41,761 nt of DNA from the NCBI GenBank assembly GCA_964613435.1, contig CAZTHA010000002.1, positions 1 to 41,761 on the forward strand. The letters are read 5' to 3'. This document shows positions 1 to 35,525 of this stretch, piece by piece. Below the pieces are notes generated by a model. That model was given only the letters and a program-made list of their open reading frames with translations, was not told the DNA's origin and did no database searches. Positions within the stretch are counted from its first letter, which is position 1, and each line of letters starts with the position of its first letter. This stretch comes from an uncultured bacterium (GTDB lineage: Bacteria; Muiribacteriota; Ozemobacteria; Ozemobacterales; Ozemobacteraceae). Position numbers and translations under genes: made by a program.

Positions 1-597
1 GCAAACCGGATGCTTGGACGAGCAGATGATGATTTCTGAGCCTTTTACGGCGGTTCCGCAGTTGGCGCAGTTCATGATGCTGTTTTCATCTATTTTCTCT
101 GCCTGGGTTTCGGACAATACTTTGTCGCTGGCGCTGTAATAAGATGAAAAGTCGAATGTATCTATGGGAAACCTGCTGCCATTTTGACTGGCCCACTTGG
201 CCGCCTCGCCATTGAGGGGGCTTTTCAGGTTATAACTCTGGTAGGAAAGCATTTCGCCGATGCGCACGATGAGATTGGGAAGAGATTCCCCAGCTGCCCA
301 GTGGTCACCGATGCAGATGGCATGGGGAGCAATGTTGGGATGAAATACCGGCGTAAGCATTCGGCACTGGGGTGGTTGACGGGGATAAGAAGCCGAAAGA
401 TAGATTTCGGCAATATGGTTGTTTTTTACCTTAACGGAGCCGTCAGGGTTCATTACCAGGCTGTTGACCAGAAATTCGATCTGATACTTTTCAGGCGGAT
501 GACCGGTGGCAGCTTTGATGTGAATGCGACTTTCCTCATTGAAGGTAGCAACAATTTTTTCGTAGTCTGACTGTAGACGTCGGTGTCTTATACTCAT
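1..597 (-). CDS. Ubiquitin-conjugating enzyme (E2/UBC-fold) homolog with C-terminal Cys-rich zinc module; C-terminus runs off the window
   Basis: Absent from the ORF track because there is no stop inside the window. Hand translation of the minus strand from ATG 597..595 stays open for all 199 codons to base 1: MSIRHRRLQSDYEKIVATF...EIYLSASYPRQPPQCRMLTPVFHPNIAPHAICIGDHWAAGESLPNLIVRIGEMLSYQSYNLKSPLNGEAAKW... UBC landmarks present: N-terminal RLQxDY helix, YPxxPP, HPN triad (334..342) and a Cys 9 residues after the His (Cys95, 313..315). From aa 177, CANCGTAVKGSEIIICSSKHPVC repeats the CxxC-x11/12-C opening of the zinc fingers in the two upstream genes. ATGA overlap with the preceding gene (594..597). 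Confidence 0.85.
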   Translation of the reverse strand, partial: MSIRHRRLQSDYEKIVATFNEESRIHIKAATGHPPEKYQIEFLVNSLVMNPDGSVKVKNNHIAEIYLSASYPRQPPQCRMLTPVFHPNIAPHAICIGDHWAAGESLPNLIVRIGEMLSYQSYNLKSPLNGEAAKWASQNGSRFPIDTFDFSSYYSASDKVLSETQAEKIDENSIMNCANCGTAVKGSEIIICSSKHPVC

Positions 598-1931
598 CGG
601 TTAGGTTCCTTTTCAGCCAGCTGGCCGGCTCCTGAAAGGGCAAGCAGTTCAAGCCATTCTGGTTCGAGCAGCTGGAAAAATTCATCAATTGCAATTGAAA
701 AGTTTAGGCCTTCAGTGGCGGTTTTGGCATATATCCAGGTGTTTACTCCGATCAGGTACCCTTCGAGGTCATAGAGCCCGCCACCGGAATTGCCGTGATT
801 GAGCGGAGTCTGCATCTGAACGACGGTTATTTCTCTTGAACCATGTCGATTTTTGCGCAGGGCAGAAATCACGCCATCGGTGTATGTCCAGTTCAGGCCG
901 ATAGGATTACCGATGGCAAATACTCTTTGTCCCATTGTAAGCGCGCGGCCTTGCTGGTATTTCAGCTGAGGAACGAACCCGTTGGGGGTGCTCACTCTGA
1001 TCAAGGCCAGATCAATTTCATCTGGTGCCAGCCAAACCGGGGTTGCCCCCGTGGTTTCGCCGGAGTAAAAGGTCACTTCGACGTTGCCGGCCTTTGCTTT
1101 CAGCTCTTCAAGAGATTTTACCCGGGTTCCGAGGGTGAGCACATGGGCGTTGGTCAAAATGTAAGTGAAGGCGTCGCGGTTACAAAGGGCTATTCCTGAA
1201 CCCATGCCCATTCTAAAGCCACTGCCGGCTTTGATGTGAACATTTGCCATCAGCGGGCCTTTGATGGCAGGGGCCGCTGTGCGAATTGCTTCGCCAATTT
1301 GTTTCATATCCGGTTTGAATTGTTCGCCCTGTTCGGTTTCGGGGTTCATCAGGGGATAAAGGGTGAGCAACAGAGCGATAATGGCGCTGCCCATTCCGGC
1401 AAAAGACAGAGGCAGGCCTTTACTGGTGCTGTTATTTTGAAAGGTTGCGATTGAAATCGCGCCGACCAGGACTGAAACCAGACAACCGCCAAGAGAAAGC
1501 AGAAAGACTGCCGTCTGGTATTCGGAGACCTTTTCGGTCGAAAAATTGACGAGGCTTACTGCAAGGGTACCCAGGCCGATAACCAGGGCAAAAATCGCCA
1601 GGGGTGACCAGGTCAGCTTTTGTTGCTGCTGAATCTCATCAGCAATGGCCGCGGTACCATATCTGCTGTTGGCCGGAACCTCTTTAAGATTTTCAAGGTC
1701 AGCTTTGGTAATAACGATATCAGCGGAGCCACCGGTAATTGGGGCGGAACTGCCGGCCCGGCAATGATAGCTGCCGCAACCGCATCTTTGCCAGCAGATT
1801 TCGTGGTTCATCGCCCCGCATTTGTGACAAATGTAAGCTGCTTCGCCCTCTTTAAGGGGTTGCAGGCACGATGGGCATGCTGTTCCAGCTCTAAGGCCGT
1901 CTACGATAATTCTGTCTCCGTTTGTGTTCAT
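594..1931 (-). CDS. Membrane protein: N-terminal C4HC3 RING/PHD-like zinc finger, 3 predicted TM helices, C-terminal trypsin-like (S1/Trypsin_2) serine protease
   Basis: 445-aa ORF. Finger at aa 19-57: CPSC-x12-CHKC-x4-H-x2-CW-x2-CGCGSYHC. Hydrophobic segments at about aa 108-130, 140-164 and 173-195. Catalytic triad contexts: LTNAHVL (His263, 1143..1145), DLALIRV (Asp307, 1011..1013), GNSGGGLY (Ser382, 786..788). ATGA overlaps at both ends. Confidence 0.85.
   Translation of the reverse strand: MNTNGDRIIVDGLRAGTACPSCLQPLKEGEAAYICHKCGAMNHEICWQRCGCGSYHCRAGSSAPITGGSADIVITKADLENLKEVPANSRYGTAAIADEIQQQQKLTWSPLAIFALVIGLGTLAVSLVNFSTEKVSEYQTAVFLLSLGGCLVSVLVGAISIATFQNNSTSKGLPLSFAGMGSAIIALLLTLYPLMNPETEQGEQFKPDMKQIGEAIRTAAPAIKGPLMANVHIKAGSGFRMGMGSGIALCNRDAFTYILTNAHVLTLGTRVKSLEELKAKAGNVEVTFYSGETTGATPVWLAPDEIDLALIRVSTPNGFVPQLKYQQGRALTMGQRVFAIGNPIGLNWTYTDGVISALRKNRHGSREITVVQMQTPLNHGNSGGGLYDLEGYLIGVNTWIYAKTATEGLNFSIAIDEFFQLLEPEWLELLALSGAGQLAEKEPNR
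1761..1877 (-). other. C4HC3 cross-brace-type zinc finger (RING/PHD-like, candidate prokaryotic RING) module 1
   Basis: Ligand pattern C19-x2-C22-x12-C35-x2-C38-x4-H43-x2-C46-x3-C50-x-C52-x4-C57, with Trp directly after the 6th ligand. Boundary Cys codons checked on the DNA (gca at 1875..1877 and 1761..1763). Confidence 0.65.
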
Positions 1932-2599
1932 TTGAATACCATCGAATAAAGGATGAAAATTACGGCTATCGCTGCCCAGAGAACCGAAATAGCCATTGCC
2001 GCATAAAAAAGAACTTTCAGGGATGGCGGCAGGCGCTTGGCTCTGAAACTCCAGCTATCGGTAAAAGCTGCGATAAGGTTCAACGGCAGCATGATGAAAA
2101 CGAGGCAGCCGATGGTGCTAAAGACAAATTGGGCAATGACCGCTGTTTTTATTCTTCCGAGTTCTTTTTCGTCATAGATTCGGTCTTGCCACTCGACCTT
2201 GGTCATCGGTCGTTCGGTTGGAAAAGTCGCTTTACATACCTTGCAGACAAGGGCATTTGCGATGATGCTCGAACCGCATTCTGGGCATTTTTTTTCGGCA
2301 GTCCAACCTGGGGTGAAAATATCCTCCGGAACTGCTTCCTTGGCGACAGTGACCGGTGCGGCCGCACAACCGTAGGTGCCGCAACCGCCGATTTCCTGCC
2401 AGCAGTCATGGTGGTAGGGCAAAGAACACTCTGGACAGACGACAATGGTGTCGCTCTGCATTATTCCGGTGCCACAGGTCGAGCAGATTTTGCCGATGTG
2501 TTCAGCAGATGGAGAAACTGGACTAACCTGTACTCTTTTGCCAACGTTTACTGGCCGCTGCATTTTTCCGGTTTTACTGCCAGGTTTGAGGGTGTTCAT
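1928..2599 (-). CDS. Membrane protein: C4HC3 RING/PHD-like zinc finger, a second CxxC..CxxC zinc ribbon, 2 C-terminal TM helices
   Basis: 223-aa ORF. Finger at aa 39-78: CSTC-x12-CPEC-x4-HH-x-CW-x5-CGTYGC, paralogous to the finger in 594..1931. Second ribbon: KCPECGSSIIANALVCKVC. Hydrophobic segments at about aa 150-176 and 190-222. ATGA overlaps at both ends. Confidence 0.8.
   Translation of the reverse strand: MNTLKPGSKTGKMQRPVNVGKRVQVSPVSPSAEHIGKICSTCGTGIMQSDTIVVCPECSLPYHHDCWQEIGGCGTYGCAAAPVTVAKEAVPEDIFTPGWTAEKKCPECGSSIIANALVCKVCKATFPTERPMTKVEWQDRIYDEKELGRIKTAVIAQFVFSTIGCLVFIMLPLNLIAAFTDSWSFRAKRLPPSLKVLFYAAMAISVLWAAIAVIFILYSMVFK
2366..2485 (-). other. C4HC3 cross-brace-type zinc finger (RING/PHD-like) module 2
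   Basis: C39-x2-C42-x12-C55-x2-C58-x4-H63-x2-C66-x6-C73-x4-C78, again with CW after the His. Boundary Cys codons checked (gca 2483..2485, aca 2366..2368). Confidence 0.65.
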
Positions 2600-3696
2600 G
2601 ATCTTTCCTTTTGCTGAAACTCAAGCAGACTTTCGCCAATAATGATGACATCGCCTTTTTCAAGAACTTTTCTGGCGACTCTCTGTGAGTTGACAAAAAC
2701 GCCCTGAGGGCTGTTCTTGTCGATAACCTCAAATTTGCTGCCAACCTGTTTGATTTCAGCGTGATGCGGCTCAACGGCGGGATCTTTGAAAATGTAGACA
2801 TCGCATTTTGGTGAGCTGCCGATTATAGTCGGATTGTGGTAGATTACGAATTGTTTGCCTCTGAGTGGGCCAGTTTTCATGATCAACCAGGCGTCTTTGG
2901 TCAGATTCTCGACCAGTCCGGTAAATACTCCGACCATCAAGCCAATGATACAGAATCCGATCATACGGCTGGTACCGCCAGAGTCAGCAAAGCCGAGCTT
3001 CGTAAGTGAAAAGCCAATTGGGTCAAAAAGCAGTCCGCCGAGGAAACCGCCAAGAAGCCCACCGACCATGCCGTTAAGAAGGAGTTTTTTCGATTTCAGG
3101 GCAATGCCGGGTCCAACCCCCATGCCGGCGCCGACTATTGTCCAGGCCATGGCTCTGGCACTGATCAGAACAAAAAGAATGCCAGGGGTAAGGAAGGCCA
3201 GCGGGTCAGCCGGATTCGGTTGCTCTGAGGGCATATTTCTTAGAAAGAACGGCAGACCAAAAGCCTTGACCAGGTTCATCGCAAAACCGCCAATCATGGT
3301 ACCGACAATCCCCCAGACCAAACCAATGCCGACGCCAATTCCGCCACATCGCATGGCCTTGAGAAAGTTTCGCGACATTATGCCTTCGATCAGGCCAACG
3401 AACAGACCTATCATTGCTGGTACCGCGACGAGCATCATTAAAATGCCGGAGCCCCGTTCTTCAGAAGAACCGGGGGAAGTAATGAAGGGCTCGAACAGTG
3501 CCCAGGCAAGAAAAGCCCCGGCTAGTCCAGCTGCTGCCGTATAAAAAACCGGATTCAACCAGAACGCGGTTTCTACCGGGGCTCTTTCGGCGGGGGTAAG
3601 CTGGCGTCGAGCCGCCTGGTGAGCCATAAGCATGTCTTCCACTTTGGGGTCACGCAGATCTCGTTTGGTTATGACAATGGTTTCTTCTTCTGCCAT
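2596..3696 (-). CDS. Polytopic glycine-zipper-rich membrane protein with C-terminal FHA (phosphothreonine-binding) domain
   Basis: The track ORF 2596..3726 begins at a TTG. An in-frame ATG at 3696 is preceded by GAGAGGAAAAAA (good SD), so 3696 is preferred. About 6 TM segments rich in GxxxG runs (GGIGVGIGLVWGIVGTMIGG, GMVGGLLGGFLGGLL). The C-terminal ~85 aa (2617..2874) read GKQFVIYHNPTIIGSSPKCDVYIFKDPAVEPHHAEIKQVGSKFEVIDKNSPQGVFVNSQRV...GDVIIIGESLLEF, a typical FHA pattern (G-R/S...S..H..I...G.....D..S.NG..VN). Confidence 0.8.
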   Translation of the reverse strand: MAEEETIVITKRDLRDPKVEDMLMAHQAARRQLTPAERAPVETAFWLNPVFYTAAAGLAGAFLAWALFEPFITSPGSSEERGSGILMMLVAVPAMIGLFVGLIEGIMSRNFLKAMRCGGIGVGIGLVWGIVGTMIGGFAMNLVKAFGLPFFLRNMPSEQPNPADPLAFLTPGILFVLISARAMAWTIVGAGMGVGPGIALKSKKLLLNGMVGGLLGGFLGGLLFDPIGFSLTKLGFADSGGTSRMIGFCIIGLMVGVFTGLVENLTKDAWLIMKTGPLRGKQFVIYHNPTIIGSSPKCDVYIFKDPAVEPHHAEIKQVGSKFEVIDKNSPQGVFVNSQRVARKVLEKGDVIIIGESLLEFQQKERS

Positions 3697-3722
3697 TTTT
3701 TTCCTCTCTGCCGGTGGGGCCG

Positions 3723-4994
3723 TCAAAACAGCCAGGGCAACTTCTCTTTCAATCCGGGTTCAAGACGCGGGTCGAGTTCGATTATGTGGCGAATTAAAGC
3801 TTTGGCTTCGCCAAGCCGGTTGATGTCAGGTGGCGATGCCGATAGAGCAACCAGATAGGGGGTAAGTTGCACCAGCAGACTTTGCGCAATCGTTTGCCTG
3901 AGCTGTTTCATCAGTTCTTCAGATTTTTCGGTCGTGCGCAGGGGCTGGTTGGTTACTGATTCAAGGGCACTCTGGACTCTTGTGCGGCGCTCAACAGAAG
4001 AAGAGGCGATTTCGTCGAGACGAATCTGCAGGGCGCTGATTTCAGAACTAAGTTCGGCTGTCGCCGAGGCAAACTCACTTGAATTGGTCATCTGCTGATG
4101 AAAGCCGTCGGAAAAAGCCTGCAATTTCCCCTGCAGTTGTCGAAGCTCTTCGGCGGCGGCGGTGTCTGCGGCCCAGGCGCCCAGCAATTCTCGGGTTTCG
4201 GCTCTGGCGGTTTTGATTATTTGATCGGTCAAAGCTCTTTGCAGCAATGTCGTTGCCAGAGAAAAACCGATTAGAAAGGCCAGTGCCAGAGTAAGGTAAC
4301 GATATGTAGATCCTTCTTCACTGGGCGATTCGAGCTTTTCTGACGTTGGCTGGGCCGGAATCGGTTGTTGTGAATAATTGGCCTGAGCCGGGAATTTTTC
4401 GCGAATCTCTTCGCTGCCAACCGCGCCCTGGGTAAGACGGTGCATTTCTTCGCCGACCCAGCAGCGTGACAAAGCCCGGGTTTTGCCTTCGATCCAGGCG
4501 AACAGGCCTTCTTTGGAATTGATTGGATCGATTACCAGCGCTACTTGAAACGGTTGATTGAAAAAATAGTCCTGGATGAATTTGTCCATGTCGGAGAGGA
4601 AAATTCCGAAACCAGGGTGGGTGTGATACCAGCCGACAATTGCCTTGTTTTTAAACTTGGCTTCCATTTCGGCATGAATGTAATCCCAGGTTTCATGAGT
4701 GAATGCAACCTGTGCGCCTTCGTTTCTGGCATGTTTGCCTCGAATGCTACCGCTGATGACCAGATATTTTCCTGAGTCGTCCTGGCAGGTTGTGCCGACG
4801 AGAATGCCGCAAAGCTCTACTGCCACGGTTTCTTTGGCGTGCTCCTGAAGCTCCTGATAAACTGATTTTTCAATTAAAACTCTTGGTTCATCATTGTTCT
4901 GGCCGGGAAAAGGTTTATTCTTTTTCTCGTGGGCATCGTAGCCTTTTTGAAAATCAAGGCCTTCAACTGCGGGCTGGATGTTTTTCTGAGTCAT
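3723..4994 (-). CDS. JAB/MPN (JAMM) metallopeptidase, candidate Ubl-processing/deconjugating enzyme, with a TM helix and C-terminal coiled-coil region
   Basis: JAMM motif E77 (VAVELCG) plus H141-T-H143-PGFGIFL-S151-DM-D154 (4584..4625, codons checked). TM-like segment YRYLTLALAFLIGFSLATTLL, followed by heptad-like, Q/E/L-rich sequence. Start set at ATG 4994 (AGGAAAGG SD upstream, 4 nt after the E1 stop). The track start at 5045 would overlap E1 by 47 nt. Confidence 0.85.
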   Translation of the reverse strand: MTQKNIQPAVEGLDFQKGYDAHEKKNKPFPGQNNDEPRVLIEKSVYQELQEHAKETVAVELCGILVGTTCQDDSGKYLVISGSIRGKHARNEGAQVAFTHETWDYIHAEMEAKFKNKAIVGWYHTHPGFGIFLSDMDKFIQDYFFNQPFQVALVIDPINSKEGLFAWIEGKTRALSRCWVGEEMHRLTQGAVGSEEIREKFPAQANYSQQPIPAQPTSEKLESPSEEGSTYRYLTLALAFLIGFSLATTLLQRALTDQIIKTARAETRELLGAWAADTAAAEELRQLQGKLQAFSDGFHQQMTNSSEFASATAELSSEISALQIRLDEIASSSVERRTRVQSALESVTNQPLRTTEKSEELMKQLRQTIAQSLLVQLTPYLVALSASPPDINRLGEAKALIRHIIELDPRLEPGLKEKLPWLF

Positions 4995-4998
4995 TGTT

Positions 4999-6213
4999 TC
5001 AGCCTTTCCTCGAGAGGGTACCCAGCAGCTTTTCGCGATCGCCATTGAGCAGCCAGGTTTTCTGGTTTTCGCCGTCTCTGCCTAAAAACACGTCGAATGC
5101 CGGAACTCCCAGTTCGGCGAGAGTCATCTGTTGCCAGGGCTCACTGCCATCGAACTGATGCGCCAGAATTGGGAAACGTGGCTTTTTGCAGTTTGGACAG
5201 ATTGCTGCTGACTCCTTGACGTTGCCGAGCGAGGCATGAAATTCAGTTTCAATATTGCATTCGCTACAGGAAAAGCCGGTGAGAACTTCCTGGCGAAGTT
5301 CAAGAACCGCCGATTCACCGAGATCTTTTCGGATTATCTGCAATGCCTGCGCCAGGGACAATTTATCGGCCTGGGCATCGAGTTCGATGATCGGCAGGTA
5401 ACTTTCATGGGAAAAACAATCGGCTTTGCGCTTGTAACTGATCACATCCTGGTAAAAATTGAGGCCTTCGAAGATGTAGCCCTTGCCGGAAATGACTTCC
5501 ATGCCGTGCAAAAGCTTGATCGCTTCCTGACATTGTATTGCGGCGATAACGCTGGCAATGGTCGGAGTGGTCGGGGTTTTTCCAGACATCATCTCTTCTC
5601 GGGTCAGCAGAGTGCAGGATTTACGCGCATTAAGTATTTTCCAGTCGACTTCGCTCATTGTACACTCATAGCACGGGCCATCAGGAGAAAAGGCTCGCGC
5701 GATACCGCTTAGGCCTTCTATTGCTCCATCTATCCAGGTTTTTCCGCAGCGAAAAGAATTCTGGTTAATGGCCAGGCGTGCTTCACGATTATCGAGTCCG
5801 CCAAGGATAACGTCGGCCCAGAGAAAAGCGCCCAGGCCAAGATCGGTGACTGCGTTCAGGCAAAGAGCTTTGATGTTGATCTCGGGAAGGATGTCTCTGG
5901 CTCTTTCTGCAGCAACTTCTGCTTTTTGCCGGCCACGATCGGCTTCACGAAAAAGAATAGATCGCGACAGGTTTGAAGGCTCTATCTGGTCGAAGTCGAC
6001 GACGAGAATATTTCCGATGCCAACCAGGGCGAAATTCTTGATAATTTCATTGCCAAGGGCCCCGGCGCCAATAACCAGTATTTTGGCGGCACTGAGCTTT
6101 TTTTGGTCCCACCAGCGAATCAGTTCAAAACGTGAAAAACGGTTTTCTTCCTGATTTGGGTCGATGTGCAGGATTTCAGGGGCTTTATCGGAATTATTCT
6201 GGTCTGAATTCAT
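4999..6213 (-). CDS. E1-like adenylating enzyme (ThiF/MoeB/UBA superfamily) with C-terminal zinc-ribbon domain
   Basis: 404 aa. Rossmann GxGxxG VIGAGALGNE (6052..6069), VVDFDQIEPSNLSRS, GGLDNREAR, CYEC zinc pair, and a candidate crossover-loop catalytic Cys200 (RKSCTLL, 5614..5616) ahead of TPTTPT. C-terminal CSECN-x17-CPNC ribbon. ATGA overlap with the Ubl gene. Confidence 0.85.
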   Translation of the reverse strand: MNSDQNNSDKAPEILHIDPNQEENRFSRFELIRWWDQKKLSAAKILVIGAGALGNEIIKNFALVGIGNILVVDFDQIEPSNLSRSILFREADRGRQKAEVAAERARDILPEINIKALCLNAVTDLGLGAFLWADVILGGLDNREARLAINQNSFRCGKTWIDGAIEGLSGIARAFSPDGPCYECTMSEVDWKILNARKSCTLLTREEMMSGKTPTTPTIASVIAAIQCQEAIKLLHGMEVISGKGYIFEGLNFYQDVISYKRKADCFSHESYLPIIELDAQADKLSLAQALQIIRKDLGESAVLELRQEVLTGFSCSECNIETEFHASLGNVKESAAICPNCKKPRFPILAHQFDGSEPWQQMTLAELGVPAFDVFLGRDGENQKTWLLNGDREKLLGTLSRKG

Positions 6214-6488
6214 TCAGCTCTTCCTGCGGTAATTTCAGGCTGAATTCTCAAGATATCGCCGGATTGAACTCCTGCCTGGCGAAAGGTTTCATCGTCAAGA
6301 AGCTGTCTTCCCGAAGCTTTATGATGAAATTTGTAGCTCATCAGCTGGCCATCAGGCGTAAAGCGTGGCAGATTCATCTTGTCGATCAGAAGAATGATTA
6401 TTCGGTTCAGTGCTTCATCATCGGGTAATTCTGCTTTGACTTTTTTGTTACCGGTAGCATCCCAGATTTCTACCATTACTGACCCCAT
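6210..6488 (-). CDS. Ubiquitin-like beta-grasp protein (Ubl) with C-terminal ..ITAG-RAE tail
   Basis: 92 aa, first gene of the operon. SD AAAGGGGA lies 9 nt upstream of ATG 6488. Sequence VEIWDATGNKKVKAELPDDEALNRIIILLIDKMNLP...GRQLLDDETFRQAGVQSGDILRIQPEITAG has ubiquitin-like strand/helix periodicity. Gly89 (6222..6224) is followed by only 3 residues. Assignment rests on size, position before the E1, and pattern. Confidence 0.7.
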   Translation of the reverse strand: MGSVMVEIWDATGNKKVKAELPDDEALNRIIILLIDKMNLPRFTPDGQLMSYKFHHKASGRQLLDDETFRQAGVQSGDILRIQPEITAGRAE

Positions 6489-6670: not shown

Positions 6671-9067
6671 TTAATCTCTTTTTGCGCGCGATTTGAAAAG
6701 ATTTTCTGCCTGTTTTTCCTGCTTAACCTGGTTCTCCACCTTTCGCATCAGCATCTTGAGATCAGTTTTTCCATAGCCGAACTTTCTCGCCAGTTGTTCT
6801 ATGTAATCCTGCTCTTCTGTGGCAATTTCTCCATCGGCAAGAGCCATTCTGATTGCCGATTCCATTAACTTATGAGCTTCTCTAAGGTCTTTGGGGATCG
6901 GTATATGTAGTTCACCCTGTTTTACCGCTTCAATGATTCCGCTTAAAAGTTCTTCCGACATCGAGAAACTCTCGGCAAACTCTCTGATGAGTTTCATTTC
7001 GGCATCGTCGATTTTACCATCGGCAAGCAGCATTTGTGCGGCCATACTGATTAAGTCGCGTCCCGAGCGCATCGTTTCATTGTCGACTTTTTCCCGTTTA
7101 ACTTCTTCGACAACCTTTTTGATCAGCTTTTGTTTGAAAACCTGAACAGATATGTATTCCTGGCTTTCGGGGTTGAGAATTTTTTCGAGAATCCAGTCCG
7201 AACCGTCGTTCAAAAGTGCGTTACAGTAGTTACAGTTTATGGCGAAGCCCGAAGTCATTGGTCCACCACAAAAATGACAGTGGGCACTGCTTAGCGCGTT
7301 GTTTAGATTGGTTTTTTGCCCAGGTTTTCTGACAAAGACAAATACGTCGCGCCTTGGCTTTACGAAACGGTGCAGTTGGGGAATTCGCCCCTGGGCGGTG
7401 CAGCTGACCGGGATTCCACTCCAGACGACGAGCAGATAGATTCTTTCGACGTCTTCTTTAACCATTATTGCCTTGAGGGTTGCCGAGGCAAAAGAGATGT
7501 TTTCAAAAAAAGTGAATTTACCGGTTGAAGAAAACAAAAATTTAAAATTTTCACAACATTTTTCGGTGGCGAATCTCTGAATTGGTTCCATTTTTCTCTG
7601 TTGCTCTGCCAGGCGGATCATCCAGAAGACGACGGCACAACGGTCTTCTATCTGCTGGGTCGTGAATTGTGGGTCCGAACCTTTCAGTTCATTCCAGCCG
7701 GGTATAACTCTGGGATTTGCGTATTCCCACTCGCAGGCCTGAGTGATCTGCGATAAGACCCAGTCGTAATTTCCAGAGCGGATGAAGGAATTGCAGACCG
7801 AACAGATGGTGGCCTGGCCAATCAGGATCGGCGCACCGCAGTTGGGGCAGCTTCCTTCCATCAAGCCTGGTTTATCGAGAGTCTTTGCTGAAGGCTTACG
7901 AACAAAAGACCAGTATTCGCATATTTTCTGCAACTTGTTTTCGGCATTGAGAGTTTCGCCGGTAACGACATCGATAGCTGTTTCAACAGCCTGGGCTCGC
8001 ACCAGAACATGGACCTCGTCAAAAATGTCATCTGAAGCGATGCGGGCAATCTGGGCGGTCTGGATGTCGACCTCGGGGCAGCTGAAGCGAATGCCGGCTT
8101 CCTTTTGCTCGGTGACCCGGCAGCGGAACTGCTCGAAAAGGGCGTCGGAAACCATTGCCTGAATGGTTTCAATTTCGTGACTATAGCAGGCGTGGTGGAT
8201 TTTTTCGAAGGCAACTCGAAATTTGTTCAGAAAGTTTTCTGAGCTGAATCCTGGATCTTTTTTGGTTAATGCCAGCATGGACTGTTGAAGTTCAGCGGGA
8301 CCCTGAATCTCGAGAAGGGATGACAGGGCATAGGAATGGCGATTCGCTGTTATTGGTGACTGCTCTTCTTCTTCGGTTTCAAAATCTCCCTGATTCATTT
8401 TTTTTACTTTGCCCCAACTTTCAGCCAGCGCCTGGATTTCCGGGCCGATTATTTCCCAGAGGTCGCCCTTCAAAATGCTGTGGTTTGGATTGATTCTGCT
8501 TTTCTGGGTTGAACTGAGCCTGGCGAGAACCCTGACTTCGCCCTGAGAATAGCGGCTTCTAAGGGCATGGTTGGCTCTTATGGCGAAAAGATGGCACATG
8601 GGCATCATAAGAAGAAAAATCATTGGCTTTTTGAGGAAATACCAGCTTAAAGCGATCAGTAGCAGGGCAATAAAGCTCAGAACTATACTGCCGATCCTTT
8701 TTTGATGCCAGAGAAAAACCGGAACGAAAAATGCGCAGATTACCAGAATGGACTCAATTGGAGCGATGAAAAAATAGAAAAAGCAAAAAAACAGTGATGC
8801 TCCGTAGACTATATAGACTATCGGCTCGGTTTGCTGGGTAATCCTTAGCACTACCAGAGTTACAATAGCAAAAAAGCAAAAAAACGAAACGTCGGGAGAG
8901 AAGTAGTTGTAATACTGAGCCTGGCCATCTTTTATGCCAAGAAAAGAAAGGGTGGTCGGAGCGATGAAGTCGTCGGTAAGGTCCTGAAAAACGAAAGCCA
9001 TGAAACCTGCAGCCAATAAAATAAGTATAAATACTGCATAAAAAGATTCTTTTTGAATTTTCATCAC
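6671..9067 (-). CDS. Large membrane protein: N-terminal multi-TM region, 2x (Tim44-like domain + CxxC..CxxC zinc ribbon), C-terminal TerB-like domain
   Basis: 798 aa. About 6 hydrophobic helices in the first ~165 aa. Tim44-like stretch: FLNKFRVAFEKIHHACYSHEIETIQAMVSDALFEQFRCRV...ICEYWSFVRKP. Ribbons: CPNCGAPILIGQATICSVC and CHFCGGPMTSGFAINCNYC, each followed by DW(V/I)L. The C-terminus (about 6734..7090) has paired ADG-(K/E)I-x-x-x-E repeats (LLADGKIDDAEMKLIREFAESF, ALADGEIATEEQDYIEQLARKFG) typical of TerB/DjlA-N-like domains. Confidence 0.6.
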   Translation of the reverse strand: MMKIQKESFYAVFILILLAAGFMAFVFQDLTDDFIAPTTLSFLGIKDGQAQYYNYFSPDVSFFCFFAIVTLVVLRITQQTEPIVYIVYGASLFFCFFYFFIAPIESILVICAFFVPVFLWHQKRIGSIVLSFIALLLIALSWYFLKKPMIFLLMMPMCHLFAIRANHALRSRYSQGEVRVLARLSSTQKSRINPNHSILKGDLWEIIGPEIQALAESWGKVKKMNQGDFETEEEEQSPITANRHSYALSSLLEIQGPAELQQSMLALTKKDPGFSSENFLNKFRVAFEKIHHACYSHEIETIQAMVSDALFEQFRCRVTEQKEAGIRFSCPEVDIQTAQIARIASDDIFDEVHVLVRAQAVETAIDVVTGETLNAENKLQKICEYWSFVRKPSAKTLDKPGLMEGSCPNCGAPILIGQATICSVCNSFIRSGNYDWVLSQITQACEWEYANPRVIPGWNELKGSDPQFTTQQIEDRCAVVFWMIRLAEQQRKMEPIQRFATEKCCENFKFLFSSTGKFTFFENISFASATLKAIMVKEDVERIYLLVVWSGIPVSCTAQGRIPQLHRFVKPRRDVFVFVRKPGQKTNLNNALSSAHCHFCGGPMTSGFAINCNYCNALLNDGSDWILEKILNPESQEYISVQVFKQKLIKKVVEEVKREKVDNETMRSGRDLISMAAQMLLADGKIDDAEMKLIREFAESFSMSEELLSGIIEAVKQGELHIPIPKDLREAHKLMESAIRMALADGEIATEEQDYIEQLARKFGYGKTDLKMLMRKVENQVKQEKQAENLFKSRAKRD

Positions 9068-17606: not shown

Positions 17607-19703
17607 ATGAGAATAATACAGGTAGTCAACGCGCTGACATTTGGCGGTGCTCAGGTCATAATTCTCGATCTCGCCAAAAAGTTGCTTGATGAGGGGCACG
17701 CTGTCGAGGTGCTGGCCTTCCGAGACGGTCCAATTGGAAAAAAACTGCGTGATGCTGGTTGCCCAACCCATATTCTCGGCGAAAGCATGCTCGATTTTCT
17801 TGCTTTTCAGCGCTTTAATCGTATCGTAAAGGATTTCAAGCCCGATATCATTCATTCACATCTTTTTCGGGCCACTTTCTGGTCGAGAATGGTGCGAATG
17901 TTCAACCCGCAGGTTTACCTGATAACCTCGGTACATGGGCGGGAGTCGGATTTTTTTCATGCTTGCGAACGCATTACCGCAGGAATTTCCGATTATATTA
18001 CCTTTCCAAGTGAATATTTGCGGCAATGGTATCTGAAGAATATTCGCAAGTTGCCCAGAACGCGAACTGGGGTCATATATCCTGGAGTGGACATTGTTTC
18101 TGAGATTTCTGCTGACGAATTTACCGACCAATACCCGTTGCCGGTTGTTGGTACCTTGTCGAGGCTCCACCCGGTAAAGGGCGTAGATCTGCTGATTCGT
18201 GCCGCCGCCAAGCTCAAACAAAGAGAGATAGACTTCGAGCTGCTGATCGGTGGTGATGGTCGCCAGAGATCTGAGTTGACACAGCTTGCTGAAAATTTGA
18301 ATATTGCTGAACGCTGCCGGTTTGTCGGCGAGATAGATGATGTTAAGGGCTTTTTGAGCCGGTTTAGTATTTTTGTGGCCGCTTCGCGGCAGGAGGCTTT
18401 CGGCATTCATGTCTGCGAGGCTATGGAAAGAGGGATTCCCGTGGTTGCTGCTCGCATCGATGGCCTGGTCGAGCTGATTGAACACGAGTCCACTGGGTTG
18501 TTGTTCGAGTCCGGCAATGCTGATTCGCTTGCAGATGAACTTGAAAGGCTCATCAAAGATCCGGCTTTGCAAAATTCACTTGCGTTAGCGGCAAGAAACA
18601 AAGTGATTGCAACTTTTAACCGCCGGATCGCTATTGAAAAGCATTTAAAGCTTTATTCTTCGCTGGCCTACCGTCCGCGTCATCTGCACTTTATCATCTC
18701 TTCAGGAGAACTTGGTGGCGGCGAAAGACTGGCTCTAAGTCTTGTTAGAGGGTTTCAGCAAAGAGGCTGGCTGGTTAGCGCAACTTGTTGCGGACAGCCA
18801 CTGACAGACGAATTGCGCGCTTCCGGAATTGAATATTCAAGCTCTGGTTTGCGGCTGGCAGGGTTTTTCTTTGCCCTGCGATCGTTTTTCGATCTTATTC
18901 GTAAAAGGCCTGATTTAATCAGTTCGCACCTTAACAAGGCCAGCTTGTTTGCCGGTGTGTTAGGCAAAATTCTCCGTATTCCGGTTATTTCTCACGTTCA
19001 TGGTCTGAATCGCCGGCTTTATTATACGGGTAGCAGTCACCTCATTGCTGTTTCTGAGGCGGTAAGACAGCATCTGCTCGCTCAAGGCGTCACTGCTGAA
19101 AAAATTACCGTTATTAAAAACGCCGTGCCTTTCAATGCGGCTCAGAATATCAGAGCTCCCGGCGATCCAATTAAAATAGCCGTAATCGCCAAACTGCACC
19201 GAAATAAGGGCCATGAATGGGCGTTAAGAGCTCTTTTACAAAACTCTGCAGCATTGCCAAATTTCGAATTGCATATCCTGGGAGATGGGCCTGAACGAAA
19301 GAATTTGAAAAGAATCTGTGACGAGTTGGACAAAAAACGTCAGGTTCACTTTTATGGTTTCATAAAAGATGTGCGCCCGCATCTTGAAAAGATCGATCTG
19401 GCGTTGCTGCCTTCGCTTGGCGAAGGAATTCCACTAAGTCTGCTTGAAGCGATGAGTTTGGGAATCCCGGTTGTGGCCACCAAAGTGGGCGGTATCCCGG
19501 AAATAGTTGAAGAAGATCGCAATGGGCTGCTTGTGCCGCCAAACGACACCGAGGCTTTGATCGGTGCAATTTCCAGAGCGACGGATCTCATCAATTATCA
19601 GCGACTGAGCCGCGGCGCGCTGGAAAAATTCTCTGAGTTAAACGATTTCGAAGAAATGGTTGAAGAAACGGCATCGGTTTTTGCTGAATTGTGCAGTAAA
19701 TGA
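17607..19703 (+). CDS. Fused tandem glycosyltransferase (two GT-B/GT4-like modules in one 698-aa protein)
   Basis: Two copies of the GT4 C-terminal signature: EAFGIHVCEAMERGIPVVAARIDGLVELIEHESTGLL (first half) and EGIPLSLLEAMSLGIPVVATKVGGIPEIVEEDRNGLLVPPND (second half). Each follows an N-terminal GGAQ/GGGER-type Rossmann start. Confidence 0.8.
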   Translation: MRIIQVVNALTFGGAQVIILDLAKKLLDEGHAVEVLAFRDGPIGKKLRDAGCPTHILGESMLDFLAFQRFNRIVKDFKPDIIHSHLFRATFWSRMVRMFNPQVYLITSVHGRESDFFHACERITAGISDYITFPSEYLRQWYLKNIRKLPRTRTGVIYPGVDIVSEISADEFTDQYPLPVVGTLSRLHPVKGVDLLIRAAAKLKQREIDFELLIGGDGRQRSELTQLAENLNIAERCRFVGEIDDVKGFLSRFSIFVAASRQEAFGIHVCEAMERGIPVVAARIDGLVELIEHESTGLLFESGNADSLADELERLIKDPALQNSLALAARNKVIATFNRRIAIEKHLKLYSSLAYRPRHLHFIISSGELGGGERLALSLVRGFQQRGWLVSATCCGQPLTDELRASGIEYSSSGLRLAGFFFALRSFFDLIRKRPDLISSHLNKASLFAGVLGKILRIPVISHVHGLNRRLYYTGSSHLIAVSEAVRQHLLAQGVTAEKITVIKNAVPFNAAQNIRAPGDPIKIAVIAKLHRNKGHEWALRALLQNSAALPNFELHILGDGPERKNLKRICDELDKKRQVHFYGFIKDVRPHLEKIDLALLPSLGEGIPLSLLEAMSLGIPVVATKVGGIPEIVEEDRNGLLVPPNDTEALIGAISRATDLINYQRLSRGALEKFSELNDFEEMVEETASVFAELCSK

Positions 19704-20758
19704 AGAAACAGCAGATTTTCTTTCTCGCGCCGGCTAACTACAGAAGCCTTTCTCAGCGTCATCAGGCTTTTGCCAATCTACTCGCTTTGGCCGGCTATCG
19801 GGTAATTTATGTTAATCCCATTGCCAGTAATGGTTTTGTTGTAAATTTTCACAAGGAAAAGGCGAATCTTACCGTGCTGGATTTGCGGTTGCCTTTCAGA
19901 GCGGCCAATTTTCCATGGTTACAGCGAGTTGTCGCCCAAATCTGCTGGAAAATTTTAAAGCGAAAATTTAAAATCGGTTGGCGGCAGATTCTTTGGGTCG
20001 CCGACCCGGCGATGGCCATGCTGGTTCTACATCAGTGGAACATGGTCGTTTATGATCGCTGTGACCTGCATGGCTTTTTTCCCGGGCAGAAAAAGTCTGC
20101 CTGGAAATCTTACGAACAGCTTCTTTTTCATAAGGCCGATCTGATTTTTGCCAGCCACCAGGCTCTTCTCGATGGCATCCCGCCGGAGTGTTCAGGCAAG
20201 GCTCATCTTGTCGGCAATGCCTGTAATGCAGAAATCGATTGTCGCAAATCATCAGGCCGTTTGGCAGGAGCTAATCGGCCGATAAAGGCCGTTTCTGCCG
20301 GGGCTCATTTCGAGTGGGTCGATTGTCGCTGGTTAAAAATGCTGGCCAAAAATCCTGCTATCGAATTGCATATTGCTGGAGTGGGCCGGGGCAAAGATTT
20401 TGAAGCCCTCGTAGGTATGCCTCAGGTTCATTTTCATGGCAAGCTATCCCAGCAACAGCTTTTTGATCTTTATTACCGCTGCGATGTCGGCCTTATCCCG
20501 TTCAAAGAGCTTGAGTTGACCGTTGCGGTCGATCCGATAAAGGCTTATGAATTTGCGGCAGCTGGTTTGCGCGTCTGGAGCACTCCAGTCCCCGGCATTT
20601 CCGGACATGAGCTTGTCGATTTCCGTCTTGAATCGGAAGCCGATGCTAATGCGGCGATCGAATCTTTTTCTTTGCCGGCAGATGACCGCCGGGTTGCCAG
20701 ATGGCCAGAAAGATTGCAGACAATTCTTGACAGAATGGGGCGATTGCAGTCAGATTAA
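19700..20758 (+). CDS. Putative glycosyltransferase-like protein (GT-B-like)
   Basis: 352 aa with a 4-nt overlap with the upstream GT. N-terminal IFFLAPANYRSLSQRHQAFANLLALAGYRVIYVNP and C-terminal HFHGKLSQQQLFDLYYRCDVGLIPF resemble GT-B enzymes. Weak assignment. Confidence 0.45.
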   Translation: MKKQQIFFLAPANYRSLSQRHQAFANLLALAGYRVIYVNPIASNGFVVNFHKEKANLTVLDLRLPFRAANFPWLQRVVAQICWKILKRKFKIGWRQILWVADPAMAMLVLHQWNMVVYDRCDLHGFFPGQKKSAWKSYEQLLFHKADLIFASHQALLDGIPPECSGKAHLVGNACNAEIDCRKSSGRLAGANRPIKAVSAGAHFEWVDCRWLKMLAKNPAIELHIAGVGRGKDFEALVGMPQVHFHGKLSQQQLFDLYYRCDVGLIPFKELELTVAVDPIKAYEFAAAGLRVWSTPVPGISGHELVDFRLESEADANAAIESFSLPADDRRVARWPERLQTILDRMGRLQSD

Positions 20759-20761
20759 ACT

Positions 20762-21718
20762 ATGCAAATTTTACTAACCGGCTTTTTTGGCGAAGCAAAT
20801 ATGGGCGACGAAACCATTCTCAGGGCGATCAGAGCCAATCTTGAGAAGAAGCATGAGCTTTGGCTGACCTGTGGGCGCCATCCCTCCATTTCCGGGCCAA
20901 AGATGCTGAACCGAAAAGGTCTTCTGGCTTGGCCCGATTACCTTAGAGCTCTCAATGAATGTGAACAGGTCGTTTTTTCCGGCGGCATTCTTCAGGACTG
21001 GAGCTTTGAAGGCATTACCTTTTTCGCTCTGCGAATACTTGCAGCTTCGATTTTCAAGGCTGAACCATCGCTTTGGGGTGCGGGAATTGGCCCAATCAGA
21101 CGCCTGGCCGCAAAGCGCATAACCCAAAAAGCGCTTGGCCGGGTAAAGACGGCCTGGTTAAGAGATCAGGCTTCTTTGGGCCTTTTCGACCAACTGGCAA
21201 ATGTTTCCGGAAAACTCGGTGCCGATTGGAGCTGGTTTTTTCCGGTAAGTCCTACCAGGCAGGCTTTTGCCAATGCACCGATAGGTATAAATCTGCGTCC
21301 ATGGGAGTTTTCCGAGTGGCGACCGGCGGTAGAGGCGCAAAGCAGGCATGTTGATCGCCATGTTATCGGCATTCCCGCCCGTCCCGGTGATAAAAAGATA
21401 ATCAAGCAGCTGTTTCCGGCTGCCACAATAATGCTTCCCGAAACATTCGAAGGGGCCTCAGAAATCTGTCAAAACCTGAGTTATGGTATAGCCATGCGCT
21501 ATCACCTTGCTTTGGCGATGTTGCGGGCATCTTTGCCGGTTAAACTGGTCGCTTATGATGAAAAGGTGGCGAATCTGGCCCGTGAGGCCGGAGTCGCTCT
21601 TCTGGAAGATAGTCCGGTATCAGGCTTCAGGCAGGCTGGGCCCGATTTCTTTTCTGGCAACCGGAAGCGTTTTGACGACATGCTTCTGGCCTTCAAAGAA
21701 CACTTCAAAATTGTATGA
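20762..21718 (+). CDS. Polysaccharide pyruvyl transferase family protein (CsaB-like)
   Basis: The N-terminus MQILLTGFFGEANMGDETILRAI matches the characteristic start of CsaB-type pyruvyl transferases, and GGILQD follows. 318 aa. Confidence 0.65.
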   Translation: MQILLTGFFGEANMGDETILRAIRANLEKKHELWLTCGRHPSISGPKMLNRKGLLAWPDYLRALNECEQVVFSGGILQDWSFEGITFFALRILAASIFKAEPSLWGAGIGPIRRLAAKRITQKALGRVKTAWLRDQASLGLFDQLANVSGKLGADWSWFFPVSPTRQAFANAPIGINLRPWEFSEWRPAVEAQSRHVDRHVIGIPARPGDKKIIKQLFPAATIMLPETFEGASEICQNLSYGIAMRYHLALAMLRASLPVKLVAYDEKVANLAREAGVALLEDSPVSGFRQAGPDFFSGNRKRFDDMLLAFKEHFKIV

Positions 21719-22731
21719 ATTATCTGCTGCGGTTTCTCGAATATATCTATCTTGCGATTACTACCTGCGATCGAATGTTCTTCAGGGTTTTTCCGTTTCT
21801 TGTTTACAGGCCTGAAGCTAAGGTCATTTCCATCGGCAATTTGAGCATGGGAGGCACCGGGAAAACGCCGGTGCTTTTTGAAATTTTGCGCGAATATCTT
21901 GAAAACAGGCCGGCGGAAAAAGTTTGTGTTATCAGCCGTGGCTATCGCAGCCCATGGGAAAACAGTTTCTATTATCTGCATGGTTCTGGACCGCACCCAC
22001 CGGAACTTACCGATGAAGCGCTGCTGTTCAATCAGCATTTCGAGAAGGTGCCTTTACTGCTTGGGAAAAGGCGCGACCGATCCGCCAGGTTCGCCGAGCG
22101 CAAGCTGCAACCCCGGTTGCTGCTACTCGATGACGGATTTCAGTATCGCCGGCTTAAAAAAGACTTTGAGATTCTGCTGTGGGACAGCCACATGCAGCCC
22201 GCCGAAGCCGAACTGATTCCTCGGGGCAAGCTTCGCGAACCGGTTTCACGGCTTATTGAGGCCGACGCTATTCTGCTGACCCGATGTGAGTCCGCTTCAG
22301 CTGCCCAGATTGACTTCTGGCAAAATTGGCTGGCCCAGCGTGCTCACGGGGTTAAGATTGTGCCAATGCAGACCCTGTGTGAAGGTCTTTTTGACCTTTA
22401 TGGCCAAAGAATAATTGAAATGCCCAGTGAGGTTATCGCCATGTCAGCGATCGGCCGCCCTGCCAGTTTTTATCAGCAATTGGAGCTAATCGGCTTGAAG
22501 GTTGTGCATCGGGTAGAGTTTCGTGATCACCATCGTTTTAACGAAAAAGAACTTGAAAAACTTGCGGCTTTACACCGCCAGAGCGGGTTGCCGGTTGTCT
22601 GTACCGAAAAGGACCGGGTAAAAATTTCCACCGAAACGGCCATGGCACTCGGTCTTTTAACAATGCGGATCCGGGTTTTGCCCTGTTCCGGCCGGTCATT
22701 GATTTCAGAGCTTGATTTGCCCATTTCTTAG
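21715..22731 (+). CDS. lpxK: Tetraacyldisaccharide 4'-kinase
   Basis: P-loop GNLSMGGTGKTP, ISRGY and LDDGFQ motifs. 338 aa, with a 4-nt overlap with the upstream gene. Confidence 0.85.
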   Translation: MNYLLRFLEYIYLAITTCDRMFFRVFPFLVYRPEAKVISIGNLSMGGTGKTPVLFEILREYLENRPAEKVCVISRGYRSPWENSFYYLHGSGPHPPELTDEALLFNQHFEKVPLLLGKRRDRSARFAERKLQPRLLLLDDGFQYRRLKKDFEILLWDSHMQPAEAELIPRGKLREPVSRLIEADAILLTRCESASAAQIDFWQNWLAQRAHGVKIVPMQTLCEGLFDLYGQRIIEMPSEVIAMSAIGRPASFYQQLELIGLKVVHRVEFRDHHRFNEKELEKLAALHRQSGLPVVCTEKDRVKISTETAMALGLLTMRIRVLPCSGRSLISELDLPIS

Positions 22732-35214: not shown

Positions 35215-35525
35215 TTTTCGAAGGGCAAAAAAGGACAAAGACAAACAAAGCGAACCAGTTCTTTTGTCTGGCATTTTACTACTCTCTCGGTTTTTATTTT
35301 ACTTCAAGTATCTTGAGCTATTTTCTTATATTCCGGGTTTCATTGTCAATAAAATGGGCTGTTTATTATTATTTGTATTCTTTCAGAGTCGGTCAGATGT
35401 TTTTAAACGCCTGCTTCAGCTAATGTTGAAGTTTTCCCTTCGGGTCATTGTGGTGTAGGGATATGAGTAAAAAACGGCCTTTGGGACCCCACATCGTTAG
35501 AATTGGTAGAATAAAGCAAATTTTT

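Follow-up and report, generated by a model that had tools for sequence, protein, structure and literature searches.

A predicted three-pass membrane protein joining a RING-type finger to an HtrA-like protease domain in a bacterial ubiquitin-like conjugation operon

Can a single bacterial protein hold a ubiquitin-ligase-type finger on one face of the inner membrane and a protease on the other, and does it tie the two activities together? The question is raised by a gene in a 41,761-nucleotide stretch of DNA from an uncultured bacterium of the Ozemobacteraceae (hereafter the window). A sequence-only reading had proposed that its product consists of a RING-like finger (aa 19–57), three transmembrane (TM) helices and a His263/Asp307/Ser382 protease, and that it links envelope proteolysis to the cytoplasmic conjugation of a ubiquitin-like protein (Ubl). 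The gene lies at positions 594..1931 on the minus strand, a strand that this reading had left unnamed, and encodes 445 amino acids from ATG to stop, an assignment that agrees with Pfam matches, homologues and an AF2 model of the whole protein (mean pLDDT 88.5). A homologue search found the same RING-TM-protease architecture in about 100 proteins, so that neither a chance open reading frame nor a chance juxtaposition of domains can account for it. A search of the NCBIfam profiles returned no specific family for this protein, nor for the second RING protein encoded beside it.

The E1, E2 and Ubl with which the finger had been supposed to work are encoded next to it, in an operon of which the RING-3TM-protease gene is the sixth. 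All genes are on the minus strand, and their order is a YukD-like Ubl of 92 aa (6210..6488, identified by profile search), an E1 of the ThiF family of adenylating enzymes (404 aa, 4999..6213, E 2e-50), a JAB/MPN peptidase (3723..5045), a six-TM protein of 376 aa with a C-terminal FHA domain (2596..3726), a second Prok-RING_1 protein of 223 aa (1928..2599), the RING-3TM-protease and an E2 of the UQ_con family with an HPN...Cys motif (1..597), which is cut by the start of the window. The Ubl ends in ...ITAG-RAE, and its orthologue in a related locus (L004) ends exactly in ...ITAG; a full-length E2 orthologue (in L001) has 295 aa and a Cys-rich tail. Profile searches and TM scans predict for the JAB protein a single TM helix (aa 250–269) followed by a C-terminal region of about 170 residues outside the cytoplasm, and for the FHA protein its six helices. 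The JAB layout of one TM helix and a C-terminal tail is found likewise in L003 and L004, three lineages altogether, while the sequence of this ectodomain is poorly conserved outside Riflebacteria. The second Prok-RING_1 protein possesses a finger and a zinc ribbon and, by TM scan, two TM helices at its C-terminus, and its Pfam score of 47.6 bits is over the cut-off.

The start codon of the E2 gene overlaps the stop codon of the protease gene (ATGA), and a 4-nt start/stop overlap of this kind is found at all examined junctions (with TTGA between JAB and FHA) except that of E1 and JAB, whose called ORFs have 47 nt in common. To judge by these junctions, the operon is translationally coupled. The gene order recurs in Riflebacteria, in many Planctomycetota and in a few other phyla, with matches in 232 species genomes, and it is kept in L001, L003 and L004 and across 80 genome loci wherever the flanking sequence suffices; in these related loci, the RING-3TM-protease gene always directly precedes the E2 gene with overlapping codons. 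A DUF2752 membrane protein comes next after the operon in relatives. A 798-aa Tim44-like/TerB membrane protein encoded upstream was considered as a further partner and rejected, as it is absent from 80 of 80 related loci.

The finger (aa 19–57, 1761..1877, minus strand) is of the C4HC3 binuclear Prok-RING_1 type, as assigned from its ligands, paralogy and fold, and is predicted to be cytoplasmic. Its ligands are spaced C19-x2-C22-x12-C35-x2-C38-x4-H43-x2-C46-x5-C52-x4-C57, and all eight are invariant in 71–72 full-length homologues; they and an aromatic residue at position 47, directly after ligand 6, are kept in 72/72 sequences. The Pfam Prok-RING_1 model (PF14446) matches aa 16–51 with an E-value of 5.9e-5 and 23.4 bits, under its 29.1-bit cut-off, and precomputed hits show that many homologues of the protein carry PF14446. 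The finger is also paralogous to the Prok-RING_1 finger of the neighbouring gene (35% identity, E 2e-7). In its C4HC3 arrangement and its long final spacer, the finger agrees with prokaryotic RINGs as the literature describes them (PMC11354881).

An AF2 model of aa 1–105 (pLDDT 82.7) superposes on the RINGs of ZNRF1, RNF13, RNF12 and RNF38 with an rmsd of 1.4–2.1 Å over about 45 residues, at non-significant E-values. C1 domains superpose on it equally well, all with E-values of at least 0.04 (0.04–0.4), and structure searches with the isolated finger do not separate the two folds. The C1 neighbours, the sub-threshold Pfam score and the presence in the operon of a better-scoring RING protein could suit a generic C1-like or treble-clef binuclear finger, one that docks partners or the membrane rather than acting as an E3, in which case the protein would be no more than a membrane-tethered HtrA-like protease carried along in the operon. 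I consider this improbable, given the complete retention of the eight ligands and the aromatic residue, the clear paralogy to the adjacent finger, the homologues that pass PF14446, the constant position of the gene before that of the E2 and the match to the published C4HC3 description.

Beyond the finger, the linker carries a conserved motif, IVITKADL (aa 72–79, 1695..1718, minus strand), of the form [LI]x[ILV][TS]xx[ED][LVI], with Thr or Ser in 79 of 81 sequences and Glu or Asp in 78 of 81. The N-terminus of the TM-FHA protein carries the same motif. A T-x-x-D/E ligand for the operon's FHA domain, bound through phospho-Thr, is one possible explanation. Ser replaces Thr in 17 of the 81 sequences, and the motif leads into a short helix of the AF2 model (residues 76–80, beginning directly after T75), a position at the helix N-terminus that fits a capping box.

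Three TM helices are predicted by hydrophobicity and AF2, namely TM1 (aa 110–131, 1539..1604), TM2 (aa 139–166, 1434..1517) and TM3 (aa 173–195, 1347..1415, supported in addition by loop charge), all on the minus strand. The hydrophobic segments (106–132, 138–166 and 172–197) and three confident AF2 helices thus bear out the number first proposed. TM3 is equivalent to the N-terminal anchor of DegS: alignments to the DegS models of NCBIfam begin at aa 181–200, and TM3 and protease are collinear with DegS. The loop preceding TM3 is basic and includes a conserved G172. Across the family, K/R residues average 2.73 in this TM2–TM3 loop and D/E residues 0.24, and its net charge is positive in 70 of 71 homologues; the TM1–TM2 loop holds a mean of 0.41 K/R, and the 25 residues after TM3 average 2.75 K/R against 4.37 D/E, with a net negative charge in 48 of 71. 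Taken by itself the window protein is indecisive (about 2 K/R inside against 3 outside), the signal being clear only family-wide.

A RING-protease fusion would have its simplest functional logic if the protease were cytoplasmic: it would complete the pathway, in place of a proteasome, by degrading Ubl-tagged proteins that the RING recruits. In distant homologues of the DUF4190 type, TM1 and TM2 form one hydrophobic stretch of about 35 residues, which can be read as a single helix and would make the TM count even. That reading puts the following basic loop outside, contrary to the positive-inside rule, and in the window protein and its clade the helices are three separate ones, of which TM1 and TM2 are parted by a polar loop. 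The net-positive TM2–TM3 loop and the acidic flank after TM3 oppose it further, as do the HtrA-family neighbours of the protease and the closest proteases outside the family, which carry signal peptides; both of these point outside. A natural fusion (P0034) also fits an external protease. It joins TM2–TM6 of the TM-FHA protein (E 1e-16) to a basic loop, one TM helix and a protease; the FHA end of the TM domain should be cytoplasmic, and one further TM helix then brings the protease outside. The P0034 locus is decayed, and this protein may be non-functional. Overall, a cytoplasmic protease seems very improbable.

The opposite placement, with the finger in the cytoplasm and the protease outside it, is the most likely one according to the sequence statistics and models, with every in-silico line pointing the same way. 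E1, E2 and Ubl show no TM segment in a hydrophobicity scan. A cascade that depends on ATP and thioesters would be expected in the cytoplasm, and if these three proteins are indeed there, the finger has to lie on that side to meet them. Other Prok-RING_1 proteins, such as RING-1TM-SPOR/SH3_3 and RING-1TM-repeat domain proteins, are consistent with this orientation. LpxK and a TonB-dependent receptor are encoded in the window and mark the host as a diderm. The earlier proposal that the protease lies opposite the finger is thus supported in silico by the AF2 helices, the positive-inside statistics, the HtrA neighbours, the out-groups with signal peptides and P0034. I hold the architecture and topology as a whole, finger inside, three TM helices and protease outside, with high confidence.

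The protease domain (aa 220–420, 672..1274, minus strand) is classified by profile and structure as a PDZ-less serine protease of the HtrA type (S1C-like), predicted to be extracytoplasmic. It matches Pfam Trypsin_2 over aa 244–396 (E 1.1e-23), and the triad that had been read from the sequence is sound: H263 (codon 1143–1145), D307 (1011–1013) and S382 (786–788), with codons checked on the minus strand, are invariant in 81 sequences, together with the motif G380-N-S-G-G-G385. By sequence, the GNSGG oxyanion-hole motif is present around the nucleophile. By sequence and by structure it is closest to DegP, DegQ, DegS, Deg1, AlgW and HtrA1, and the top Foldseek matches all belong to the HtrA family, with a TM-score of up to 0.84 to DegS-deltaPDZ. 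On these sequence and model comparisons, the ancestry of the protease is extracytoplasmic.

The description of the domain as DegS/HtrA-like therefore stands for the protease fold and fails for strict family membership. No PDZ domain was found in the 445-aa protein at E ≤ 0.1, its end lying about 25 residues past the protease domain, and none was reported in the operon partners of the window and related loci; nor does the protease carry another obvious regulatory domain. It scores 112 bits against the NCBIfam Do family (TIGR02037, cut-off 416) and 75 bits against DegS (cut-off 423), far under both curated thresholds. Lacking a PDZ domain, it is not a true HtrA.

What would such a protein do? 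The explanation that I favour is that it is a three-pass inner-membrane protein, with finger and linker in the cytoplasm and a PDZ-less HtrA-type protease in the periplasm, and would be an obligate subunit of a membrane-embedded Ubl-conjugation operon. On the inner face, the finger, as a putative E3, would recruit the E2~Ubl thioester and direct Ubl transfer to membrane proteins. On the outer face, the protease domain, probably oligomeric by analogy with other HtrA domains, would cleave exposed polypeptide; candidate substrates are the parts of these membrane clients that protrude outside, or else the JAB ectodomain. Ubl tagging inside and proteolysis outside would then be tied together in a single chain. 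As a whole I judge this explanation somewhat probable, a compromise between the high confidence in its architecture and topology and the lower standing of the coupling: a link of envelope proteolysis to Ubl conjugation is deduced from the fusion, and functional coupling of finger and protease across the membrane is tentative and less likely than not.

A true transmembrane transducer, in which the periplasmic HtrA-like domain, by binding clients, by oligomerising or by cutting the JAB ectodomain, controls RING-dependent Ubl conjugation in the cytoplasm, is more doubtful still. A similarly doubtful proposal is that the periplasmic protease is primarily a sensor or switch, DegS-like and working from the outside in: on binding misfolded or foreign envelope proteins, or on cutting the JAB ectodomain, its oligomeric state would change, the RING would be switched on or the JAB off, and envelope stress or attack would yield a surge of Ubl conjugates. 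The proposal is favoured by the established role of HtrA proteases in sensing stress, by the topology evidence given above, by the single TM helix and ectodomain of the JAB deconjugating enzyme in three lineages, and by the receptor-like look of other Prok-RING_1 proteins with envelope-binding ectodomains (SPOR, SH3_3). It is weakened by the lack of a PDZ or other peptide-sensing domain in the protein, by the poor conservation of the JAB ectodomain beyond Riflebacteria, and by the hypothetical character of allostery across three TM helices. It also overlaps with the explanation that I favour, differing only in direction and purpose.

The operon is a member of a kind predicted before. Burroughs, Iyer and Aravind are said to have introduced Prok-RING_1 in 2011 and to have predicted operons with E1, E2, RING, JAB and YukD-like Ubl genes in Planctomycetes. 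The window operon shares with these the finger family, the YukD-like Ubl, the ThiF-type E1, the HPN...Cys E2, the JAB peptidase and membrane-anchored RINGs, and differs from the planctomycete ones in its Riflebacteria-like host. JGI annotates homologues of the protein (P0071) as 'Trypsin-like peptidase / DUF4190 / Prokaryotic RING finger family 1'. The RING-3TM-protease family is thus not new, and the earlier remark that such a link had not been described is doubtful, the finger being PF14446, the operons being attributed to the 2011 study and homologues being annotated. A literature search on Prok-RING/PF14446 systems and Planctomycetes found no experimental study of the operon.

With DegS, DegP, DegQ, AlgW and Deg1, the protein shares the protease fold, the His-Asp-Ser order, the GNSGG motif and the predicted extracytoplasmic location. 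It differs from DegS in the missing PDZ domain, the two extra TM helices and the cytoplasmic zinc finger, and no sigma-E/RseA-type partners accompany it. MarP (Rv3671c) combines a multi-TM anchor with a periplasmic PDZ-less S1 protease, and the window protein resembles it in its polytopic N-terminal anchor followed by a PDZ-less chymotrypsin-fold protease. However, the match to the MarP model is weak (32 bits against a 250-bit cut-off), and MarP has neither a RING finger nor a Ubl operon.

Among eukaryotic proteins, the PA-TM-RING family (RNF13, GRAIL, RMR1) and the mitochondrial MUL1 likewise comprise a non-cytosolic domain, a membrane span and a cytosolic RING, a likeness that is by analogy only; the structure search with the finger also returned the RINGs of RNF13 and RMR1, at non-significant E-values. 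In these proteins the RING is C-terminal, so that the order is reversed, and the outer domain of the PA-TM-RING proteins is a non-catalytic PA domain, whereas that of the window protein is a predicted protease. MUL1 is reported to sense stress in the intermembrane space and to signal through its cytosolic RING (PMC6994496).

The E1/E2/JAB/Ubl enzymology also resembles that of the bacterial Bil, Bub and CBASS (Cap2/Cap3) systems, which have no RING and no membrane-embedded components of the window operon's kind. Bub works by way of oxyesters and with a Ser-His protease of the DUF6527 type (PMC11601596); the E2 of the window keeps HPN...Cys, and the BubE protease is a different one. PADLOC gave weak domain-level matches to the E1, JAB and protease of the window operon and called no system. 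With chemistry and components also differing, identity with Bub, Bil or CBASS was rejected.

The operon is among the most eukaryote-like of bacterial ubiquitin-type systems, combining RING fingers and a JAB peptidase with a separate E1, a canonical Cys-E2 and a Ubl that ends in Gly. Planctomycetes in culture carry it, Aeoliella straminimaris and Planctomicrobium piriforme among them, and it is thus open to experiment. If the predicted topology is true, the system would be part of the inner membrane and expose catalytic domains on either side of it, which suggests that it serves envelope proteins, in their surveillance, turnover or signalling, and not the degradation of soluble ones. Should the transducer also prove true, the protein would be a receptor-like bacterial E3 that reports envelope damage or attack by ubiquitin-like modification, a prokaryotic counterpart of PA-TM-RING- or MUL1-type signalling. 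The operon also bears on the possible origin of membrane-bound E3 ligases, such as those of ERAD and the receptor-like RINGs.

The reading frame at 594..1931 on the minus strand runs from ATG to stop and encodes a 445-residue protein (hereafter referred to as the RING-protease). Pfam places Trypsin_2 over residues 244-396 (E 1.1e-23), with Trypsin also matched (E 9e-13), and PF14446 (Prok-RING_1) at residues 16-51 with a sub-threshold 23.4 bits, the family cut-off being 29.1 bits. The zinc ligands are spaced C19-x2-C22-x12-C35-x2-C38-x4-H43-x2-C46-x5-C52-x4-C57, and Kyte-Doolittle and charge-free-run scans place hydrophobic segments at 106-132, 138-166 and 172-197. Together with the homologue alignments, this bears out the sequence-only reading that a finger, three transmembrane (TM) helices and a His/Asp/Ser protease share one ORF, and a codon check found all of its residue numbers for this protein to be right.

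A search of a 5.8-billion-protein collection returned ∼100 proteins of like layout. The closest named homologues, from Candidatus Rifleibacterium amylolyticum and Ozemobacteraceae, are 56-68% identical, and those from Planctomycetes, annotated Prok-RING_1 + DUF4190 + Trypsin_2, are more remote (28-34% identity). Alignments of 71-81 homologues show no variation at the eight zinc ligands, at H263, D307 and S382 or within GNSGGG, and an aromatic residue directly follows ligand 6 in 72/72 sequences. The finger is 35% identical over 52 residues (E 2e-7) to that of the adjacent gene, which clears the Prok-RING_1 cut-off at 47.6 bits, and the two fingers are paralogues. With the N-terminal 200 residues alone as query, 145 clusters were returned from 1.84 billion representatives, nearly all with the C4HC3 pattern; of the 141 clusters new to this search, 44 also carry the protease motifs at full length. 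The same search found four further Prok-RING_1-headed membrane proteins (P0230, P0179, P0257 and P0219), whose layouts include RING-1TM-SPOR+SH3_3, RING-1TM-beta-repeat domain, RING-zinc ribbons-1TM-ectodomain and RING-multiTM-FHA; this variety suggests a broader class of receptor-like bacterial RING proteins.

An AF2 model of the RING-protease, built from an 81-sequence alignment (mean pLDDT 88.5), shows helices at 110-131, 139-166 and 173-195 and, beyond them, a protease domain rich in beta structure. The top Foldseek matches in the PDB are all HtrA-family proteases (DegP, DegQ, DegS, Deg1, AlgW and HtrA1), with E-values of ∼1e-14 and TM-scores of up to 0.84, normalised to DegS-deltaPDZ, and phmmer against PDB sequences gave the same outcome. 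A Pfam search for a PDZ domain in the protein found none, and it scores well below the curated HtrA/DegS/DegP family cut-offs. The earlier description of a DegS/HtrA-like protease therefore stands for the domain, which is of HtrA type, and not for strict membership of the family. The finger, modeled in isolation (residues 1-105, pLDDT 82.7), superposes on the RINGs of ZNRF1, RNF13, RNF12, RNF38 and RMR1 with an rmsd of 1.4-2.1 Å over ∼45 residues, and equally well on C1 domains, all with non-significant E-values. The model predicts a binuclear treble clef for it, and what justifies the label 'RING' is its family and its context, not its structure. The C4HC3 order with a long last-pair spacer agrees with the published description of prokaryotic RINGs (PMC11354881).

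An odd number of helices had been taken to put the protease across the membrane from the finger, and six independent lines agree on this location; the predicted topology (finger inside, protease outside) is well supported in silico. Firstly, the RING-protease and its clade possess three separate helices and a polar TM1-TM2 loop. Secondly, across 71 homologues the short TM2-TM3 loop averages 2.73 K/R and 0.24 D/E, with a net positive charge in 70/71; the mean for the TM1-TM2 loop is 0.41 K/R, and the 25 residues past TM3 are acidic (2.75 K/R vs 4.37 D/E). Under the positive-inside rule, these statistics place the TM2-TM3 loop and the N-terminus in the cytoplasm and the protease outside; the K/R count of the window protein by itself is indecisive, and the weight is carried by the family pattern. 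Thirdly, DegS models align with the RING-protease from TM3 on, and TM3 plus protease thus mirrors the DegS anchor and periplasmic protease. Fourthly, the nearest non-family proteases start with a signal peptide. Fifthly, P0034 (L005, 9001-10401) is a natural fusion of TM2-TM6 of the TM-FHA protein (E 1e-16), a basic loop, and one more TM and a protease, which correspond to the last TM and the protease of the RING-protease; since the matching end of the parent TM-FHA protein carries the cytoplasmic FHA domain, the single added span places the protease outside. This locus, where a 99-residue E2 remnant comes next and which adjoins lgt and lspA, resembles an operon in decay or one that has been remodelled, and P0034 is therefore modest evidence. 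Finally, other Prok-RING_1 proteins consist of a finger, a single TM and then periplasmic-type domains, e.g. SPOR + SH3_3.

The E1, E2 and Ubl possess no TM segments. The window encodes LpxK (21715-22731, plus strand), a TonB-dependent receptor (32968-35274, minus strand) and a glycosyltransferase run (17607-22731, plus strand); the first two imply an outer membrane and a periplasm, and the gene content indicates a diderm host with LPS. One caveat comes from distant DUF4190-type homologues, where TM1 and TM2 are fused into a ∼35-residue hydrophobic stretch with a GIPLFG turn. Read as one helix, this stretch would give an even count, and would also put the very basic next loop outside. The main alternative, a cytoplasmic, 'proteasome-like' protease, goes against the topology evidence and is disfavoured relative to a protease outside.

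The RING-protease gene is the sixth of a minus-strand operon, encoding a YukD-like Ubl ending in ...ITAG-RAE (6488-6210), a ThiF-type E1 (6213-4999), a JAB/MPN peptidase (5045-3723), a six-TM protein with a terminal FHA domain (TM-FHA, 3726-2596), a Prok-RING_1 + zinc ribbon + 2-TM protein (2599-1928), the RING-3TM-protease (1931-594) and an E2 with an HPN...Cys signature, which starts at 597 and is cut by the window start (1-597). The gene junctions examined are 4-nt start/stop overlaps, ATGA (TTGA at JAB/FHA), except E1/JAB, where the called ORFs share 47 nt. The Ubl ends in ...PEITAG then RAE in the window, has a longer tail in L003 and stops exactly at ...ITAG in L004 (4505-4765), both distant metagenomic contigs; these variants imply a mature Ala-Gly terminus, presumably exposed by the JAB peptidase. 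The latter has one TM (residues 250-269) and a C-terminal helical region of ∼170 residues, which should be periplasmic as a predicted ectodomain; two distant lineages share this layout, and the tail sequence is not conserved. The motif IVITK(A/R)DL is common to the cytoplasmic linker of the RING-protease (1695-1718, minus strand) and the TM-FHA N-terminus (residues 17-24, ~3655-3678, minus strand), with T/S kept in 79/81 homologues and E/D at +3 in 78/81; possible readings are a capping box for a helix, a docking motif that both proteins share and a pThr-x-x-D ligand of the operon's own FHA domain. A full-length E2 orthologue in Rifleibacterium (L001 11341-12228, 295 residues) has a ∼100-residue C-terminal tail dense in CxxC pairs, a probable multi-zinc module.

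The same gene order was found in Rifleibacterium (L001), L003, L004 and 80 genome loci, judged where the contig was long enough, and a DUF2752 membrane protein usually lies 3' of E2 in relatives. Matches occur in 232 species-level genomes, mainly Planctomycetota and Riflebacteria, and also Victivallales, Sumerlaeota and Anaerolineales. The RING-protease, whose HtrA-type catalytic domain is intact, is always encoded together with a complete set for attaching the Ubl and removing it, and most of its partners are membrane proteins. In L003, a Planctomycete-type contig, an IS66-family transposase (7354-8532) sits inside the operon between the two RING genes, and the FHA domain is called as a short separate ORF. 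Just upstream of the window operon, a 798-residue Tim44-like/TerB protein (6671-9067, minus strand) possesses N-terminal TM helices, a Tim44-like domain, zinc ribbons and two TerB-like regions; its gene was found at 0/80 related loci, and it is therefore probably unrelated.

PF14446 reportedly stems from the 2011 work of Burroughs, Iyer and Aravind, and the family's description is reported to mention TM helices in bacterial versions. A passage in PMC4197634 credits Planctomycetes E1/E2/RING/JAB/Ubl operons to these authors' 2011 paper, calling them uncharacterised. A homologue, P0071, is annotated by JGI with all three domains. The RING-protease thus belongs to an already catalogued kind, here in a Riflebacteria-like host, and the suggestion that such a link had not been described was overstated. 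In the searchable literature, neither an experimental study of the operon nor an explicit treatment of the finger-inside/protease-outside arrangement was found. Bub, Bil and CBASS differ from the window operon, and eukaryotic PA-TM-RING ligases and MUL1 offer functional analogies only.

At the inner face, the finger would act as E3, or work with an E3, for the neighbouring E2~Ubl, while at the outer face the protease would act, probably as an oligomer. The link between the two could lie in membrane clients that they have in common, or in a cut made in the JAB ectodomain. Such functional coupling of envelope proteolysis with Ubl conjugation is proposed and unproven; the RING-protease may be an outside-in sensor, or a two-faced disposal unit. 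The arrangement provides a clear, testable prediction on a strikingly eukaryote-like bacterial Ubl system.
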